Source: an uncultured bacterium
GTDB taxonomy: Bacteria > Patescibacteriota > Saccharimonadia > Saccharimonadales > Saccharimonadaceae
Reading direction: 5' to 3'
Assembly (NCBI GenBank): GCA_903900345.1
Contig: CAIUMO010000001.1
Coordinates: 16,960 to 80,959 of the forward strand
Length of the DNA stretch: 64,000 nucleotides
Each line of letters starts with the position of its first letter. The stretch's first letter is position 1. Positions 4,634 through 58,333 of this stretch are shown one piece after another. Under the pieces are notes generated by a model that made no database searches, was not told the DNA's origin, and was given only the letters and a program-made list of their open reading frames with translations. The position numbers and the translations under genes were made by a program.

Positions 4634-4653
4634 TTACGAATGAACTGAAATTT

Positions 4654-4678
4654 AATACCCCGCAATCTGCGGGGTATT
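4654..4678. terminator. Terminator-like hairpin between rpsJ (+) and a small minus-strand ORF
   Basis: AATACCCCGC-AATCT-GCGGGGTATT, 10-bp perfect stem flanked by A/T runs on both sides. Confidence 0.5.
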
Positions 4679-4694
4679 AAATTGGATTGTTAAG

Positions 4695-4919
4695 CTATTG
4701 AAGTTTATTAATAATATCCAGGGTGTCGACTTGAATCTTAAGAACCCAAACTGATAACACTAGGATATAGACGGCTAGTATTGACCAATAGATTGTTTGC
4801 CTAGTTACATATAATGACAAGAACGGATTTGTTTCTTTGGCAACATGAAACGGTTTTGTTTTAACTGGACGAGTTATCTTTTTTGCTAATTTTCTTCGCT
4901 GGTTTTTTGAAGTTGCCAT
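4695..4919 (-). CDS. Small hypothetical single-pass membrane protein
   Basis: ORF 4695-4931. The ATG at 4919 lies 12 nt after AAGAGGA. Basic N-terminus plus one hydrophobic helix (IYWSILAVYILVLSVWVL). No recognisable family. Confidence 0.3.
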   Translation of the reverse strand: MATSKNQRRKLAKKITRPVKTKPFHVAKETNPFLSLYVTRQTIYWSILAVYILVLSVWVLKIQVDTLDIINKLQ

Positions 4920-5002
4920 AAATGTATACAATCCTCTTAGATAACAGTTGATAGTGTTTATTATTACTCATTCATTTGTAAAACACAAGCGTTATTATAC
5001 AT

Positions 5003-5162
5003 GCTTCGCTCTAGTCTTTCTTTTCTGCCGTTCACCACCACTTAGTCCAGGCAGATGGCCACTTTACGGGTGACGCGAGGCGGGGCGGCACCCGATTTAC
5101 TACAAAATGGTAATCCATTTTTATAAATCAGGGGCGGACCGAGCGGCAGGACCCGTGGGGTG
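5003..5162 (+). repeat. Truncated second copy of the GC-rich element found at 54888-55201
   Basis: 5066-5088 is identical to 55152-55174 (23 nt). 5131-5162 is identical to 55168-55199 (32 nt). The 5' part 5003-5045 is recognisably related to 54891-54955. The central domain is missing. Confidence 0.7.
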
Positions 5163-5191
5163 AGATGGAGTAGGGTATCTGAACTAAATTA

Positions 5192-5220
5192 TTGACTCCT
5201 AACAGATAGTGTGCTACTAT
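5192..5220 (+). promoter_or_regulatory. Sigma70-like promoter for rplC and the downstream operon
   Basis: TTGACT (5192-5197), 17-nt spacer, TACTAT (5215-5220). Confidence 0.5.
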
Positions 5221-5328
5221 CAAATGGTAACTTATTAGAAAATAACAAACGATTCTTGGTGAATTGGTAAGTCCAACAGATTGGATACTGCCTCCCACCA
5301 AGAATTTTAAGTGGGAGCATGAAGGCAA
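5221..5328 (+). promoter_or_regulatory. rplC 5' leader with mutually exclusive hairpins
   Basis: Stem A is 5254-5261 TCTTGGTG with 5296-5303 CACCAAGA. Stem B is 5292-5298 CTCCCAC with 5311-5317 GTGGGAG. They share 5296-5298, and stem B covers the GGGAG Shine-Dalgarno-like motif. Confidence 0.3.
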
Positions 5329-5943
5329 ATGAAAGCACTTCTCGGTACCAAAATTGGTATGACCCAAATCATTAGCAAGGATGGTGTTGCAGTTCCTGTA
5401 ACATTAATTCAAGCTGGCCCTGTGACTGTGACTCAGGTCAAAACTGTCGAAACCGACGGTTACACTGCAGTACAAGTGGCGTATGGTGAGGGTAAGAACC
5501 TGAGCAAGGCCGTGGCTGGACACACAAAAACAGCCGGAAGTAACCCGAAACATATTCGGGAATTTCGTGTAACAGAACTACCAGAAGGCCTCTCGGTAGG
5601 AAACACGATTGACGTAACATCTTTTGCATTGGGCGACATCGTTGATGCCACCGGTACAAGCAAAGGTAAAGGTTTTGCTGGAACAGTAAAACGACATAAC
5701 TTTAACACTAGCCGACATACCCATGGCGGCAAAGGTAATATCCGCAAACCAGGATCAATTGGATCAATGTATCCACAAAAGGTCTTCAAAGGTAAGCGCA
5801 TGGCAGGACGCATGGGTCACGACCGAGTAACGGTCAAAAACCTTGTTGTCGCCTACGTTGACCCAACGAATAGCTTGATTGGTCTTCGTGGTGCCGTACC
5901 AGGTCCTAAAAAGGGCTTGATAATTATCGGAGGAAAAGCATAA
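5329..5943 (+). CDS. rplC: 50S ribosomal protein L3
   Basis: 204 aa. GKGFAGTVKRHNF motif. First gene of the conserved L3-L4-L23-L2 series. Confidence 0.97.
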   Translation: MKALLGTKIGMTQIISKDGVAVPVTLIQAGPVTVTQVKTVETDGYTAVQVAYGEGKNLSKAVAGHTKTAGSNPKHIREFRVTELPEGLSVGNTIDVTSFALGDIVDATGTSKGKGFAGTVKRHNFNTSRHTHGGKGNIRKPGSIGSMYPQKVFKGKRMAGRMGHDRVTVKNLVVAYVDPTNSLIGLRGAVPGPKKGLIIIGGKA

Positions 5944-6572
5944 TGGCTGAGTCTACTAAAACTACTGTAATTAAGAACGCCTTATCTGACGATATCTTTG
6001 CTGTTGATGTTAATAATCACGAATTATTGAAGTTAGCTTACGATAGCTATCTAGCCAATTCACGTACTGCTCACGCCACGACTAAACAACGTGGTGAAGT
6101 TAGTGGTGGTGGTAAAAAGCCATGGAAGCAAAAAGGTACCGGTCGAGCACGTTTTGGCTCGTCACGTAACCCAATCTGGCGCGGTGGTGGTGTTGTCTTC
6201 GGACCACGTGGTAATGAAAATTACACAAAGCACCTAACAACAACCAGCAAGCGTGTTGCTGTTAAACAAGCCCTAACCCTAGCTAATACTGCCAAGAAGA
6301 TCGTTGTTGATACATTCGCATTCAGCGAAGGTAAAACCAAAGAGACTATTACCTTACTAGCTAAGCACAAAATTGATCCACGCGCTCGCGTCCTATTGGT
6401 CGTCGACGTCAAGGATGGGATGGTTATTCGTGCAACTCGCAATATTGCGCAGGTCAAGATAATTCGTCCAACTTACTTGAACGTGTTTGATATCCTTAAT
6501 GCCGATACAATTATCATTAGCAAAAAATCTTTGCCAATGATCAGCGAATGGCTTACTAAGGTGGAGAAATAA
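5943..6572 (+). CDS. rplD: 50S ribosomal protein L4
   Basis: 209 aa. KPWKQKGTGRARFGS motif. ATG overlaps the rplC stop. Confidence 0.95.
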   Translation: MAESTKTTVIKNALSDDIFAVDVNNHELLKLAYDSYLANSRTAHATTKQRGEVSGGGKKPWKQKGTGRARFGSSRNPIWRGGGVVFGPRGNENYTKHLTTTSKRVAVKQALTLANTAKKIVVDTFAFSEGKTKETITLLAKHKIDPRARVLLVVDVKDGMVIRATRNIAQVKIIRPTYLNVFDILNADTIIISKKSLPMISEWLTKVEK

Positions 6573-30944: not shown

Positions 30945-31019
30945 AGGGGTATAGTACAACGGCTAGTATATAAGTCTCCAAAACCTAAGATCGTGGTTCG
31001 ATTCCACGTACCCCTGCCA
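30945..31019 (+). tRNA. tRNA-Trp(CCA), CCA end encoded
   Basis: AGGGGTA TA GTACAACGGCTAGTAT A TAAGT CTCCAAA ACCTA AGAT CGTGG TTCGATT CCACG TACCCCT G CCA. One A-C mismatch in the anticodon stem. Confidence 0.85.
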
Positions 31020-31519: not shown

Positions 31520-32047
31520 ATGAAAAAACTCAGTATTGAAGAATTTGACGAACTTATCTCTTTAGCTCAAATAAAACCTCGTCTAAAACGAGAATTGAGG
31601 TTTGTTAACTGTGTAGAAAATATGTCCGATGAAGAATGGGACGAAAGGGAACTGTTAAGTGTTTCTGATCGCAATGGTAACAATGGCGTCCTCTTGTTGG
31701 CATTGGACAAAGGCATGTATGTCCTGCCGTATGAACTTAAGACTGGGATTACGAGTTCCATAACGGGTCGATCGCAATCGGTCATCTGTGACTTTTGTCG
31801 AACATGGCAACGTGGTGACAAATCGGCCAGTATTCGTTTTTTGAAAAGCAAAAACTCCAGCGTCCACTATCTATGTTGTGCAGATTTACTGTGCAGCATG
31901 CACGTTCGCGGCAAAACCGATACATCACTTACTTCAAGGACTCAATTACGTGAAGATATGTCGGCTGATCAACGTATCGAACGCTTGAACACTCGCTTAG
32001 CTGACCTTGTAGCCACGTTACCAATCGAACCTGTTTTGGTTGATTAA
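31520..32047 (+). CDS. FBP (FusB/EF-G-binding protein-like) C-terminal treble-clef zinc-finger domain protein
   Basis: 175 aa. CDFCRTWQRG...SVHYLCCADLLCSMHVRGK resembles my recollection of the FBP_C pattern C.LC....(n)..G.YIC.DL.CSLYVRGK. FVNC near the N-terminus is as in actinobacterial FBP-domain proteins. Confidence 0.55.
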   Translation: MKKLSIEEFDELISLAQIKPRLKRELRFVNCVENMSDEEWDERELLSVSDRNGNNGVLLLALDKGMYVLPYELKTGITSSITGRSQSVICDFCRTWQRGDKSASIRFLKSKNSSVHYLCCADLLCSMHVRGKTDTSLTSRTQLREDMSADQRIERLNTRLADLVATLPIEPVLVD

Positions 32048-32112
32048 TATATCCTTACGTTATATTGCGTCGAACATACGCTCCTGCAAATATTTCTGTT
32101 ATTATTAAGCTT

Positions 32113-32628
32113 ATGGATCAAATAACTCGCAAAGAATCTGATTTTATTTTAATCAATCCCAAAACAGCCAATCTAAATATAGATCCGGTTCACGAGCTAA
32201 AAATTAATCGTTTTGAAAAACCTAAGCCATATTGGCTTTATGCACTCAAACTTGAACATGGAAAATACTATGTAGGCTTTACAGGAATGCGTAATCCCTA
32301 CGACCGCATAATGCAGCATGTCGCGGGCGAAGGTGATGGGGCAAAATGGACAGAATTACACAAGCCAATTGAAGTGATTGAAATTCGTGATGCAGGTATA
32401 ATTACAGCAACAGAAGCAAAAGCATATGAACAGAATTTAACTTGGCAGTATATGAAAATATACAAAACAAAAAACGTAAGAGGAGGTGTATTTAACTACA
32501 CTGGCAGAATATTTCGTATAGGTGACAGCGCCATTATGGGCTATATGTTTGACTCAGTTATAGTTGGAGTTATGTTTATAATCGCAGATTCATATATCAT
32601 GCTGCGGCATATTTTTAATTGGTGGTAA
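32113..32628 (+). CDS. GIY-YIG nuclease-domain protein with C-terminal hydrophobic segment
   Basis: YWLYALKLEHGKYYVGFTGM (GIY-YIG beta hairpin), then R..H, E..LT and NVRGG. C-terminal MGYMFDSVIVGVMFIIADSYIML. Start at ATG 32113 is preferred over the TTG at 32065. Confidence 0.5.
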   Translation: MDQITRKESDFILINPKTANLNIDPVHELKINRFEKPKPYWLYALKLEHGKYYVGFTGMRNPYDRIMQHVAGEGDGAKWTELHKPIEVIEIRDAGIITATEAKAYEQNLTWQYMKIYKTKNVRGGVFNYTGRIFRIGDSAIMGYMFDSVIVGVMFIIADSYIMLRHIFNWW

Positions 32629-32738
32629 ACTAAAAGCTACGAAGGGAGTCCACTTGAGGCTGCCAAATAAAATTTGAAACGCTCTTAGCCAACTGTAACA
32701 TACTAGCGGATAATGAGATTACATTAATTGATAGTATA

Positions 32739-33128
32739 ATGGTTGTTATGCGATACTCGCCTAAGAGTGAAGTCATTTTGGAAGTAACCGATATGTACGG
32801 TACTGTTGTTAAATTTTGGAAAAACAACTATGATAAGCATAAGGATAAACATCCAGAATTAAGAAATAAACAGTTTTGCCCCGGACAAATAACTATGGCA
32901 CTACAACAACCGTCATTTGTAATTCAAGGTAATCATCATAGTACACTTTGCTACTACCTTGAATTATTTAGATTTCGTGGTATAATAAAGTACACTAAAG
33001 TTGTAGTACAAGAAGCAGAACGAAACAGTAGCGCTAATCCTCATTGTGTCATAAAAACCGCATTTAAAACTGACCATGTTCAAGAAACTAATTACGGTTT
33101 TGTGCCGATGTATTATAATAGTAAGTAG
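32739..33128 (+). CDS. Putative toxin, Barnase-EndoU-ColE5/D-RelE-like (PBECR-type) small nuclease fold
   Basis: 129 aa. Pattern ..VKFWKNNYDKHKDKHPEL....I..ALQQP.FV.Q......CYY......KYTKVVV.......VIKTAF resembles my recollection of phage/TA PBECR-like proteins. 9-nt gap to the next ORF. Confidence 0.35.
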   Translation: MVVMRYSPKSEVILEVTDMYGTVVKFWKNNYDKHKDKHPELRNKQFCPGQITMALQQPSFVIQGNHHSTLCYYLELFRFRGIIKYTKVVVQEAERNSSANPHCVIKTAFKTDHVQETNYGFVPMYYNSK

Positions 33129-33137
33129 GAGCAAGCA

Positions 33138-33542
33138 ATGGCAACTGAACTAAAATTAGATAGACTGAAGATTCTTTCTCAATTGAGAGACATTAAGAGT
33201 ATATCTAATGACTGGGCGCTTGAATATGATGTTGATGTTGATCAACTATTTTATGGTGTTAAGAAAATACCTAAGGGATATTTCTTGTTTCAACTTAATG
33301 ACGAGATTAATTTATTCGTTAATAAGAACTCAAGTATAAGAGGTATGTTTGTTGAATATTTTGGAAATAATTATCTCGAGCACAACAAAGAACTAAAACC
33401 TGTTCTGCAGGTATTTGAAGGTAATGATGGTGAACCGAAAAAAATTAGAAATATTGAGCGCCTTGCTTTGGAGAAAGATCTGTTGTTTAGTGCGCTATCT
33501 TCACTTGTTGATAGGGAAGAGCTTATTACGGCCGTAGCCTAG
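33138..33542 (+). CDS. Putative antitoxin, DUF2283-like
   Basis: 134 aa. The LEYDVDVDQLFYG motif resembles the DUF2283 hallmark YD.E.D.LYI. Tightly coupled to the upstream ORF (AGGAG before the ATG). Confidence 0.35.
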   Translation: MATELKLDRLKILSQLRDIKSISNDWALEYDVDVDQLFYGVKKIPKGYFLFQLNDEINLFVNKNSSIRGMFVEYFGNNYLEHNKELKPVLQVFEGNDGEPKKIRNIERLALEKDLLFSALSSLVDREELITAVA

Positions 33543-33686
33543 TGCGCTACTGTAAGAAATGAAAATTCTCTCCAGGTTAGATGTATGGTGAATATCAACA
33601 AGTAGAGCGGTGTACATACCCCCAACCTGTCAAACTAGGTAAGAAAACTTACTGGACACGCGGTGAGCTTATCGTATAATTAATCT

Positions 33687-34409
33687 ATGGAAGTGCTACA
33701 AAGTGGTCGAGAGGACCAAAACCCAAGAGCGTTATTGCGTGAAGCAAAAAATTGGCTCGAAGTTTATAAACTACTTTGCTCTAGTACGCAAAACACCGAT
33801 CTAATTTATCAGTTGTTATACAGCTTTTTCTTTGCTGTTGAACTTTATCTTAAATCATACATCGTTTTACAAAATCATGAATATGCAGATAGCCAAAAGC
33901 TTAAAAAGTTAAATCATAATTTCCAAGTGATGAGGCAACAAGTTCAGCGATCAAATAACAAAACTACTTATGTCTTATTGAAAAAGCAGCTTGATAATAA
34001 CCAAATCTTGCTTCACAACAAATGGAACGAGTTTTTGCGTTATGTGCCGGCTCAAATTATGGTTAGTATCGAAAGAGACATGGAAAAAGGTGCTCACGAC
34101 TGGCAGCCATTATTTTCACACATAGAATCGATCGTTGAACAGCAATATGATCAATGGGAGCATGATCATTACCCAAAGAAAGAAAGTTGTTCATTATTGC
34201 TGTCTATAGAGGCTCCCAAAGACGAGAAAATAATAAATATAACGTCCCGGGACATTATAAAAACATGCCAAAATTGTAGGCCTATTTGGGTTAGTGCAGT
34301 GTTCCGTACTATAACTTTCCCATGGAGTGTAGAACCAAAAATGGCAAAGTGCAAGATTTGCGGAAAAGATTTTGTACTTGATAAAAGCTGGGTTAGAGGG
34401 TTAGATTAA
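33687..34409 (+). CDS. Hypothetical all-alpha (HEPN-like) protein with C-terminal CxxC...CxxC zinc ribbon
   Basis: 240 aa. FFFAVELYLKSYIV....KLNHNF resembles a HEPN helix pair. C-terminus CQNCRP...(27 aa)...CKICGKDF. Confidence 0.3.
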   Translation: MEVLQSGREDQNPRALLREAKNWLEVYKLLCSSTQNTDLIYQLLYSFFFAVELYLKSYIVLQNHEYADSQKLKKLNHNFQVMRQQVQRSNNKTTYVLLKKQLDNNQILLHNKWNEFLRYVPAQIMVSIERDMEKGAHDWQPLFSHIESIVEQQYDQWEHDHYPKKESCSLLLSIEAPKDEKIINITSRDIIKTCQNCRPIWVSAVFRTITFPWSVEPKMAKCKICGKDFVLDKSWVRGLD

Positions 34410-53954: not shown

Positions 53955-54872
53955 ATGAAGCAATATTTGGAACTTCTGCAAGACATCAAAGATAACGGCG
54001 TGGCTAAATCTGACCGCACTGGTACTGGCACCAAGAGTGTTTTTGGTCGTCAAATTCGATTTGACCTTAGCCAAGGCTTTCCAGCTGTTACTACTAAAAA
54101 ACTGTTCTTGCGCGGTATAATTCATGAATTACTTTGGTTTTTACAGGGTGATAGCAATATTGAATACCTGGTTCAAAATGACGTTCATATCTGGGACGAA
54201 TGGCCATATCGAGCCTATTTGGCGGCAATTGGCAAATCAATTCCAGACAGCAATTCTGACGAGTGGCGCAACGGGCTGCAAGAGTTCACTGAAAAAATCA
54301 AAACCGATCATGAGTTTGCTTTAAAATATGGCGAATTAGGCCCAGTCTATGGCCACCAATGGCGTCACTGGCCTGATGGCAAAGGTGGTGAAATCGATCA
54401 GATCGCTGACGTCGTCAATACTCTTAAAAATAATCCTGATTCACGTCGTATTATCGTCTCGGCTTGGAATGTAGCCGATATTCAAGAAATGGCCAAAGCT
54501 GGCCTGCCACCATGTCACAGCTTATTTCAATTTTATGTCACTGATGGCAAACTTAGCTGCCAACTGTACCAACGTAGCGCCGACACACTGCTGGGTGTAC
54601 CATTTAACATCGCTTCATACGCCCTGCTAACTATGATGATGGCACAAGTAACTGGGTTACAAGTTGGCGAATTTGTTCATACCTTTGGCGATGCTCATAT
54701 TTATTTGAACCACCTGACACAAGTCGACTTGCAATTATCCCGCCAACCCAAAGACTTGCCAAAAATGATTATCAATCCAAATGTCAAATCAATTTTTGAC
54801 TTCAAGATCGAAGACTTCACCCTGGAAGGTTACGACCCATACCCAGCCATCAAGGCCCCAATTGCGGTTTAA
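53955..54872 (+). CDS. thyA: Thymidylate synthase (ThyA)
   Basis: 305 aa. [18 protein letters not shown] (catalytic Cys), [20 protein letters not shown] and a C-terminal KAPIAV. Confidence 0.96.
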
Positions 54873-54887
54873 TCAAAATAGCACCAT

Positions 54888-55201
54888 CTCGCTTCACGGG
54901 TCCTGCAACTCACTCCGCCCCCAAGTTTCTCATTTCTGCCGCCTCCCCTCACTTACCTTTATTCTAAGCAGCACACTCTACCAGGTACGCTTTCGCCCGT
55001 TACAATCTAACGGGGAAAACGTAGCCTATGGCGTTCGGCTGGTCCTGGTAGCCCACAGTCTGCTCAGTAATAAATGTAAGTGATGGGAGGCGTATTTAGA
55101 CTACTTTGACAGAATTGACTCTTTGGCCCTGGCCTTAAGTAGCAGACTTAGACGGGTGACGCGAGGCGGGGCGGACCGAGCGGCAGGACCCGTGGGGTGG
55201 G
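54888..55201 (+). ncRNA. Candidate structured RNA or MITE-like GC-rich element of unknown family
   Basis: Nested long-range helices: 54888-54921/55168-55201, 54940-54956/55076-55092, 54964-54985/55044-55067, and a hairpin 54996-55014. About 73% G+C in 55141-55200. G.U pairs favour the + strand. A partial copy lies at 5003-5162. Confidence 0.45.
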
Positions 55202-55222
55202 CGGGGCTTAAGTAGTGTATTT

Positions 55223-55705
55223 CTAACTTCGCGCGTAAGTCACGAATGAATAATTGTATTTATTTTTATCATCTGCCTGATGGTCTTCACGGGCGACTTC
55301 GTGCCAGTCATTCATTAAAGTCGGAAAGTAGGTATCGCCATTAAACGAAGCATCAATTTCAGTAGCGATGATCTGATCAGCGCTAGATATAGACTGCGCG
55401 TAGATCTGTCCACCGCCAATAACATAAATATCTTTACTGGCGTCAGCAATTTCAAAAGCTTCTTCTAGACTATGTATAATATCCACACCATCAATCTGTA
55501 GAGGCTGCCTAGTAATAACGATATTCTGACGATTTGGTAAAGGTTTACCGATTGAATCGAATGTCTTTCGCCCCATAATCACAACATTTCCAGTCGTCAA
55601 ATCACGAAAGTGCTTCATATCTGCCGCCATATCGCCTTGCCACAATAATTTGTTATCAGCGCCAATTAGACGATTCTTGTCATAGGCAACAATAATATAC
55701 TTCAT
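55223..55705 (-). CDS. folA: Dihydrofolate reductase
   Basis: 160 aa. IGADNKLLW....D...F...[26 protein letters not shown] motif. Confidence 0.93.
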
Positions 55706-57139: not shown

Positions 57140-57168
57140 TTGCATTCTGTGAAAACATTTGCTATAAT
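57140..57168 (+). promoter_or_regulatory. Sigma70-like promoter for rplJ-rplL
   Basis: TTGCAT (57140-57145), 17-nt spacer, TATAAT (57163-57168) with upstream TGC. Confidence 0.55.
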
Positions 57169-57369
57169 TTTCACAGACATTACCAAAGACAGTAGCTGTG
57201 CCTGGCACTTAATTCGCTACCGAGGATCATGTAAAACATACATTTTTCGATATAAGTCTTTGGCAGTGCGAGAACCAAGGACTTTTTTCTTGGGACGCAA
57301 CTGTCTAGAACGTTTACAATTTGGTCGAATATATAATTTTACATACAAAACAATTAAAGGAGAATTTTT
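57169..57369 (+). promoter_or_regulatory. Long structured rplJ 5' leader (L10-leader-like autoregulatory candidate)
   Basis: 200-nt untranslated leader. Long-range stem CCAAAGAC (57183-57190) with GTCTTTGG (57256-57263), then CCAAGGACTTTTTTCTTGG hairpin. The ORF-track ORF 57140-57415 here is not credible. Confidence 0.45.
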
Positions 57370-57937: not shown

Positions 57938-58333
57938 ATGGCTGAAGAAATTAAGCTATCTGCTGCACAAGCAAAAATCGTTGATGAACTCAACAAGTTA
58001 ACCGCTCTTGAACTATCACAAATCGTAAAACACCTAGAAAACGAATGGGGCGTAAGCGCCGCTGCTCCTGCAGCTGCTGCTGTTGCTGCTCCTGCTGGTG
58101 CTGCTGCTGTTGCTGACGAAAAGTCAGAATACACAGTTAAACTAGCTGAAGCTGGTGCTCAAAAAGTTGCTGTTATCAAAGCTGTTAAAGAAATCACTGG
58201 CCTAGGTCTAGGTGAAGCAAAAGCTATCGTTGATAGCGCACCTTCAACAGTTAAAGAAAAAGCTACAAAAGAAGAAGCTGAAGCTGCTAAAAAACTGCTT
58301 GAAGAAGCAGGCGCAACAGTCGAACTAGTCTAA
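57938..58333 (+). CDS. rplL: 50S ribosomal protein L7/L12
   Basis: 131 aa. Ala-rich hinge and C-terminal domain [24 protein letters not shown]...EEA...KK.LEEAGA.VEL. Confidence 0.96.

Follow-up and report, generated by a model that had tools for sequence, protein, structure and literature searches.

The DNA analysed here, a stretch of 64,000 nt referred to as the window, comes from an uncultured bacterium of the Saccharimonadaceae (GenBank assembly GCA_903900345.1, contig CAIUMO010000001.1, positions 16,960 to 80,959). It carries the convergent genes thyA (53955-54872, plus strand, stop codon TAA) and folA (55223-55705, minus strand, stop codon TAG), between which lies a spacer of 350 nt without a credible open reading frame (ORF). 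Most of this spacer, termed element A, had been put forward in an initial annotation as either a novel structured RNA or a transposable element of the miniature inverted-repeat type (MITE). From comparisons with relatives and with similar sequences elsewhere, element A can be described as an inserted member of a repeat family that has a covarying, strand-biased structure and also occurs in frame within ORFs. It is most probably a decayed head-to-head doublet of a non-autonomous structured repeat of Saccharibacteria-like genomes, that is, a selfish palindromic element, for which we use the name Saccharibacterial palindromic element.

The thyA-folA spacer and its absence in relatives

The gene ends and the lack of an ORF agree with the initial annotation, and so does the base composition: the spacer has a GC content of 53.7% versus 42.0% for the whole window, and a recount of positions 55141-55200 again gave 44 G+C out of 60. 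The nested helices that had been drawn by eye (Table 1) were all recovered in a pairing check, in which the first helix of (iii) showed one mismatch that had gone unmentioned. Helix (i) includes the perfect 12-bp pairing CACGGGTCCTGC/GCAGGACCCGTG, and the G-tract GGGGTGGGCGGGG is present at 55194-55206 as claimed. The minimum free energy of the spacer is -156.0 kcal/mol (z -6.3) on the plus strand and -162.9 kcal/mol (z -7.4) on the minus strand, and on neither strand did any of 100 dinucleotide shuffles fold as well. The structure of the spacer is real, and the fold gives no preference for the plus strand. The outer 7 bp of helix (i) consist of 3 Watson-Crick and 4 G.U pairs, the latter having been taken as an argument for a plus-strand RNA; this argument is not established, as the minus strand folds at least as well. 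Moreover, an element that is an inverted doublet would have no single polarity.

No match to Rfam 15 was found for the spacer, either with gathering thresholds over the whole window or locally at E <= 10, and ARAGORN detected no tRNA or tmRNA in it. A promoter scan showed no sigma-70-like promoter inside the element, and no intrinsic (Rho-independent) terminator-like site with its T-run signature was present on either strand in 54700-55400. Resemblances of element A to RNase P, SRP, 6S, or tmRNA, and to a retron, a diversity-generating retroelement, or attC, were considered by eye and rejected for lack of a supporting feature. Just one further GC-rich island exists in the window (58041-58118); it corresponds to the Ala-rich hinge of L7/L12 and is not a third repeat copy. 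An ordinary ribosomal protein L10 leader (RF00557, 64 bits) lies at 57165-57297 on the plus strand, upstream of rplJ.

Homologues of FolA assign the window to the Saccharibacteria. In two relatives, represented by four loci whose sequences and translations were compared (L006/L007, FolA 74% identical; L008/L009, 72%), folA and thyA are convergent with a 14-nt overlap and no spacer, and the gene table of a third relative (FolA 78% identical) gives the same 14-nt overlap. Since the relatives overlap by 14 nt and the spacer of the window measures 350 nt, the window gained about 364 nt. The C-terminus of ThyA is kept (...APIAV-stop), whereas FolA ends in ...YARS-stop in the window versus ...YAKQQ-stop or ...YTRQR-stop in the relatives, so that the last two FolA codons and the stop would be encoded by the inserted DNA. 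On this comparison, element A is an insertion. At the thyA and folA junctions no clear direct repeat was seen in alignment with comparators that are diverged (~75% identical).

A different arrangement is found in the relative P0002, which has a 97%-identical FolA (ENA ERZ1426829, a contig of 6,071 nt): folA is followed by a spacer of 331 nt and then by a class IV aminotransferase gene, not thyA. This may reflect a rearrangement at or beside the element.

Architecture and distribution of the repeat family

The full unit of the family is about 150 nt long and forms two hairpin domains on its G-rich strand. Domain 1 consists of P1 (CGGGUG/ACCCG), P2 (a long-range helix joining two conserved G-rich blocks), P3, and a variable apical hairpin, and domain 2 consists of GCGACCUACGUG, a variable hairpin, and GACGACGGGAGCG. 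Read directly, the unit's two ends (..TAAGCGGGTG and GACGACGGGAGCGG..) do not form an inverted repeat. RNAalifold returned the same two-domain fold for MAFFT alignments of five units and of nine, and a covariance model built from five units recovered four further independent full-length copies with scores of 104-130 bits. Covariation statistics were obtained on an 11-row model alignment, in which 94.1% of the cells are paired versus 80.8 +/- 1.2% in shuffles. Double changes, affecting both sides of a pair, occur in 19 of 39 pairs, and all three pairs of the long-range helix between the G-rich blocks covary; none of 500 shuffles was as good on every measure. When the 3′ partners were slid as a control, pairing fell to 38-48%. 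As initially stated, no known RNA family matches: in addition to the negative result for the spacer, the full units in L001, L003, L010, and L011 gave no Rfam match at E <= 5.

G.U pairs outnumber A.C pairs by 23 to 6, all six A.C pairs being in one doublet (L001), which indicates that the G-rich strand is the strand under structural constraint. Because host genes carry the unit in either orientation, this constraint is not a function of the host mRNA. It is most simply explained by a need of the element's own propagation, either as single-stranded DNA or as its own transcript. A conserved covarying structure thus does exist, but it belongs to the repeat family and not to the thyA-folA locus.

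Within element A, the inverted arms, which had been read as ~35-bp terminal inverted repeats (TIRs), are 27-34 nt long and represent an internal block of the family unit, copied in inverted orientation; by direct reading, the unit itself lacks TIRs. The left arm is 87-89% identical to block 2 of L001, L010, and L015 by BLAST and gives a weak covariance-model match of 8.4 bits on the minus strand. In the right arm, block 1 (ACGGGTGACGCGAGGCGGGG) runs straight into block 2 (GGGGCGGACCGAGCGGCAGGACCCGTG), the two being fused at a shared GGGGCGG; the 39 model positions of P3 and the apex have been lost, and domain 2 is likewise missing. With an inverted block 2 on the left and a remnant of domain 1 on the right, element A has the organization of a head-to-head doublet, like the intergenic doublet of L001. 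Its centre includes an inner inverted repeat of 24 nt (54940-54963 / 55069-55092, 92%) and has no homologue in any fetched locus beyond its first two bases, the same genome (L004) apart; outside the centre, the nearest family match begins at 55149.

The second copy of the window, copy B, lies about 50 kb away in the rpsJ-rplC gap (4634-5328), which at 695 nt is unusually long for an S10 operon. Copies A and B share an identical 23-mer (ACGGGTGACGCGAGGCGGGGCGG; 55152-55174 and 5066-5088) and an identical 32-mer (GGGGCGGACCGAGCGGCAGGACCCGTGGGGTG; 55168-55199 and 5131-5162), which in copy B are separated by a 42-nt AT-rich hairpin, its apical part being AAAATGG-TAAT-CCATTTT. A modest local alignment also joins the left part of element A (54924-54955) to 5013-5044 next to copy B, with 25 of 33 positions identical and 7 of 500 shuffles as good. 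This similarity is a weak hint that what is copied in this genome may be the doublet; it would make copy B a doublet like A. A 78-aa minus-strand ORF without a Pfam match (4695-4931) lies in the same gap.

Table 1. Positions of the features of element A, its helices, and copy B in the window
Feature	Position	Strand	Description
Inserted segment (element A with short flanks)	54873..55232	.	Gene coordinates; sequence of L006, L008, L009, and the P0003 contig versus window
Last two FolA codons and stop (R, S, stop)	55223..55231	-	Replace ancestral KQQ-stop / RQR-stop; translations of L008 and L006 versus window
Left arm	54888..54921	-	Inverted, diverged family block 2 and 3′ strand of P1; minus strand reads GGGGCGGAGTGAGTTGCAGGACCCGTGAAGCGAG
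Private palindromic centre	54922..55142	.	~220 nt; holds helices (ii)-(iv)
Right arm	55143..55216	+	Remnant of unit domain 1; covariance-model match 42.2 bits, E 6e-8
Helix (i)	54888-54921 with 55168-55201		26 Watson-Crick, 4 G.U, 4 mismatches
Helix (ii)	54940-54956 with 55076-55092		16/17 paired
Helices (iii)	54964-54971 with 55060-55067; 54978-54985 with 55044-55051		7/8 paired; 8/8 paired
Helix (iv), apical hairpin	54996-55014		7 bp
Copy B	5057..5178	+	Domain 1 with own apical hairpin, no domain 2; covariance-model match 64.5 bits, E 4e-13
Possible diverged inverted partner of copy B	5013..5044	-	Weak; versus 54924-54955

Outside the window, the core of the repeat turned up once when 185,579 species genomes were scanned for the exact pattern, in a metagenome-assembled genome (MAG) of the Saccharimonadales (L001). 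There, two units (plus strand 6314-6457, minus strand 6214-6370) are arranged head to head between a LysM/CHAP peptidase gene and an mltG-like gene. A lysM-TM7 RNA motif (RF03005, 95 bits) at 5841-6002 on the minus strand of this contig, upstream of the peptidase gene and ~210 nt from the doublet, is consistent with a TM7 origin of the contig. A scan of metagenomes placed the core at the start of a contig from another metagenome (L002), which begins inside a related copy, and in frame inside a topoisomerase I ORF, topA (L003).

In-frame copies were sought with a six-frame peptide query and then with a two-orientation peptide profile. The unit occurs in orientation 1 (RVTRGGAAP...GADRAAGPVSSDLR...DDGSG) in TopA, CysRS, Dus, Der, MnmA, and a PF11490 protein, and in orientation 2 (PLPSS...RRSLD.GP..RSAPSS...GAAP..ATR) in LepA (four variants at the same site), an ABC-F ATPase, and an FtsJ-like methyltransferase; several small, spurious ORFs have been called over intergenic copies. 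An HMMER scan of 1.84 billion representatives gave 26 matches and added GluRS and RNase HII/YraN contexts; two of the 26 (P0144 and P0147) are unrelated repetitive giant proteins. An occupied/empty pair is provided by Dus: the gene of L014 is exactly 50 codons longer than that of the syntenic L012, in agreement with a covariance-model match of 151 nt. By comparison with solved structures, the LepA insert of ~51 aa stands in place of a turn of 4 residues (between E. coli residues 64 and 69), and the CysRS insert of ~66 aa lies immediately before GFPGWH. The LepA insert is common to several close relatives and diverges faster than its flanks. Among eight units, the same one frame is stop-free in six on the plus strand and in seven on the minus strand, which holds for two of three intergenic copies and for the unused orientation, while the other frames contain 0-7 stops, mostly 1-5. 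The units are 56-79% identical to one another.

Searches in other replicons were negative. Element A gave one 40-nt match of chance level to phages and none to plasmids by blastn, the full unit gave no blastn match in PLSDB plasmids or, with a word size of 11, in 5,426 complete E. coli genomes, and pattern scans did not find the core in viral contigs.

Several database proteins (P0145, P0160, P0156, and P0153) are chimeric across the unit: a GluRS N-terminus is followed by the unit and a Dus C-terminus, a Der N-terminus by the unit and a GluRS C-part, RNase HII by a unit remnant and a Dus C-terminus, and an RNase HII C-terminus by the unit and a YraN-like part. Either short reads were mis-joined at a repeat that several genes of one genome share, or copies have really recombined with each other. 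In L014, gene calling gives Dus as a pair of ORFs (1256-1606 and 1783-2352); the frame changes upstream of the insertion, and this copy may be a pseudogene or contain a sequencing error. In L016 (GCA_015473185.1, BNJV01001781.1; 10001-14325), pieces of lepA are spread over 4.3 kb in an assembly with many split genes, with ~2.4 kb of small unknown ORFs without an Rfam match separating the domain-2 part from the EFG_C part; long-read data rich in frameshifts could be responsible, and/or lepA could contain a second large insertion.

Alternative explanations and possible mechanism

The stable, non-random fold of a GC-rich, ORF-free island in surroundings of 42% GC, together with the covarying structure of the parent family, could be explained by a free-standing plus-strand gene for a novel structured small RNA, as the initial annotation had proposed. 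This is nevertheless very unlikely. The segment is absent in the relatives whose thyA and folA overlap, and only its arms have homologues, which lie in unrelated contexts including ORFs in both orientations. Furthermore, element A lacks domain 2 and the domain 1 apex of the conserved fold, folding is at least as good for its minus strand, the scan for promoter-like and terminator-like sites found none within it, and no Rfam match appears even at E <= 10; it keeps only a remnant of the family's covarying structure. The spacer might also be suspected of being an assembly artefact, namely a chimeric join or a contaminant in the MAG, given that a short-read Logan contig (L005) breaks inside element A, at the block common to copies A and B, as does L002 in a related copy, and that some unit-carrying proteins look chimeric. 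The repeat does fragment short-read assemblies. However, a 163-kb ENA scaffold of the same genome (L004) contains both flanking genes and a spacer identical to that of the window, the independent contig L005 agrees over its last 64 nt, and both flanks are contiguous with the syntenic genes dcd, tmk, L10, L7/L12, and L1, which leaves an artefact with a negligible probability. Only marginally credible is a reading in which the unit acts as an intron- or ribozyme-like RNA that splices or cleaves itself out of host mRNAs, its in-frame state being incidental. In its favour are the conserved blocks, the variable hairpins with covariation, and the G.U strand bias. On the other hand, TopA, CysRS, and Dus carry the unit on one strand and LepA and ABC-F on the other, so that half the host mRNAs contain the worse-folding strand; in addition, the inserts keep the reading frame (exactly 50 codons in Dus), and no Rfam ribozyme or intron family matches.

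The recurrence of the peptide motifs RVTRGGAAP...GADRAAGP.SSDLR...DDGSG in many proteins and the one frame kept open per strand raise the question of whether selection acts on the unit as a protein module, namely a movable cassette of ~50 residues that benefits host proteins and whose nucleic-acid structure is a by-product. This appears highly improbable, since the same DNA is used in both orientations and yields unrelated peptides, and since base pairs are kept in intergenic copies with frame breaks (L001, and copy B with its stops). Compensatory double changes in the stems alter amino acids and keep pairing, and the peptides are of low complexity (G, A, S, P, D) and sited where solved homologues have connections of 2-4 residues. 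A more plausible, though still tentative, suggestion is that the insertion was co-opted as a cis-acting hairpin that terminates or insulates convergent thyA/folA transcription or shields the mRNAs from 3′ exonucleases. Transcription-terminating and mRNA-protecting roles have been described for REP, ERIC, and Correia elements. Repeats at the 3′ ends of genes are also known to change mRNA stability elsewhere (PMC3184786), and element A is positioned exactly between two convergent stop codons with a hairpin of about -156 to -163 kcal/mol on either strand. These points are set against the lack of a T-run terminator signature, the relatives that manage with overlapping genes and no spacer, and the presence of other family members inside ORFs, where termination would be harmful. 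Co-option would be compatible with the selfish-element reading as a possible secondary effect; at thyA-folA, the effect is probably only that each of the two convergent mRNAs has a large hairpin at its 3′ end.

The decayed doublet of a selfish palindromic element therefore remains the preferred reading of element A, and the proposal of a MITE is supported in substance, though not as a textbook case: a second partial copy exists in the window, further copies lie at unrelated loci and also inside ORFs, and Dus supplies an occupied/empty pair. The supposed TIRs are inverted copies of an internal block. We infer that the repeat family is or was mobile, selfish, and non-autonomous. Under this reading, a copy or a doublet would have landed in the 14-nt overlap of thyA and folA in the lineage of the window, pushing the two genes 350 nt apart and giving FolA a new two-residue C-terminus. 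The inserted copy would then have decayed, with loss of domain 2 and the domain 1 apex and with a centre that diverged or was acquired. One stop-free frame per strand would allow a unit to survive both in intergenic DNA and in frame in housekeeping genes, in either orientation.

Propagation would proceed through a single-stranded intermediate recognised by a trans-acting enzyme. By analogy with REP/RAYT and IS200/IS605, an HUH/Y1-type single-strand DNA transposase ranks first, as a possible but rather unlikely candidate, because the unit apparently lacks TIRs, the structure favours one strand, and the doublets are inverted. Less probable is a DDE transposase that would act on the arms of the doublet, and an RNA-mediated route is more doubtful again. 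Also improbable is the idea, by analogy with transposon-encoded guide RNAs, bridge RNAs, and ribozymes, that a new kind of mobile element in bacteria of the candidate phyla radiation (CPR) has the ~150-nt unit as its active nucleic acid, a strand-specific two-domain RNA or single-stranded DNA directing its own copying or insertion with a trans-acting enzyme. If so, the one open frame per strand would have evolved to hide in essential genes, and element A would be a fossil.

Several observations weigh against the selfish-element reading. Mobility is deduced from the distribution of copies and not from observed movement, and with units only 56-79% identical, no recent burst of transposition is shown. 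Copy density is low, with no extra copies in ~110 kb of flanks of the targeted loci, and the covariance model, run with filters off, finds only two family loci in the 64-kb window, both partial; together with the divergence of the units, this makes most copies look old. A target-site duplication (TSD) or exact ends could not be defined for the Dus pair or the flanks of eight units, where no clear direct repeat was seen against comparators of ~75% identity. No transposase, RAYT, or reverse transcriptase was found, the Pfam scan having covered 10 unknown ORFs of the window. The selfish-element reading does not account for the 220-nt centre of element A, and the taxonomy of unit-carrying contigs is established for L001 and the window only.

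The only protein recognised in that Pfam scan is a stand-alone GIY-YIG nuclease-domain protein of 187 aa (32065-32628). Its surroundings, downstream of tRNA-Trp (30945-31019), are a cluster of small unknown ORFs (31520-34409), and this cluster could be a homing-endonuclease-like or mobile region.

Relation to known elements and significance

The closest analogues of the Saccharibacterial palindromic element are the Rickettsia palindromic elements (RPEs), followed by REPIN doublets and ERIC-type MITEs. To our knowledge, RPEs have been described as unique to Rickettsia. They are repeats of ~105-150 bp that are fused in frame in unrelated housekeeping genes (Ogata et al. 2000 and 2002, as summarised in PMC10969869 and PMC3184786). 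Both elements are hairpin-forming, non-autonomous, and similar in length, occur in intergenic DNA as well as in frame in housekeeping genes, encode a conserved peptide, and reside in a small-genome host that depends on another organism, the mobilising enzyme being unknown in both. The likeness is one of description, and there are clear differences: the hosts are Saccharibacteria of the CPR versus Alphaproteobacteria, and the saccharibacterial element is GC-rich, whereas RPEs are AT-rich. Moreover, the saccharibacterial unit has two domains and is strand-asymmetric with covariation, and its blocks are conserved across copies as divergent as those described above. The in-frame, peptide-encoding trait applies to the family but not to element A of the window, which is intergenic and rewrites only the last two FolA codons.

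As in REPIN/RAYT and IS200/IS605 systems, the intergenic copies (element A, probably copy B, and L001) are doublets of units inverted head to head, each folding into a single long hairpin. The bias toward one strand is that expected for the recognition of hairpins in single-stranded DNA, and the unit apparently lacks TIRs, as REP sequences do. It differs from REPs in being a branched two-domain structure of ~150 nt rather than 20-40 nt and in occurring also inside ORFs, whereas REPs are extragenic; in addition, no RAYT or Y1 transposase gene was seen here in a very incomplete search. With ERIC/IRU, Correia, Nezha, and BOX/SPRITE elements it shares the form of an imperfect palindrome of ~100-200 bp whose sequence is conserved across species while its locations differ. 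Shared, too, are variants produced by internal insertions and deletions, occasional in-frame ORF fusions, and possible effects on mRNA 3′ ends (PMC3184786). More generally, the element resembles a MITE: it is short, lacks a transposase gene, is repeated (the window has two copies), and is found in some but not all related genomes (element A, and Dus in L014 and L012). It departs from ERIC-type MITEs in that no combined TIR and TSD signature was shown, the copy number per genome is apparently low, and there is no similarity to ERIC-bearing E. coli genomes.

A full-text literature search on repeats of Saccharibacteria and the CPR found no paper describing such elements, and this family of ~150-base structured repeats, for which Rfam holds no model, is apparently undescribed. 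Element A is an ordinary decayed copy, and the family behind it is the interesting part. For the thyA-folA locus, a false lead is removed, as there is no new RNA gene there. In practical terms, short-read assemblies are interrupted at the elements, which may also give rise to chimeric gene calls and which add low-complexity loops of ~50 residues to conserved marker proteins that are used in CPR phylogenies. If a second, unrelated lineage of reduced-genome, host-dependent bacteria puts up with selfish DNA in frame, in genes such as topA, lepA, cysS, and gltX, this tolerance would seem to be a recurrent feature of such genomes, and the well-supported covarying structure on one strand, which sets the family apart from RPEs, gives a concrete handle on how such elements spread.

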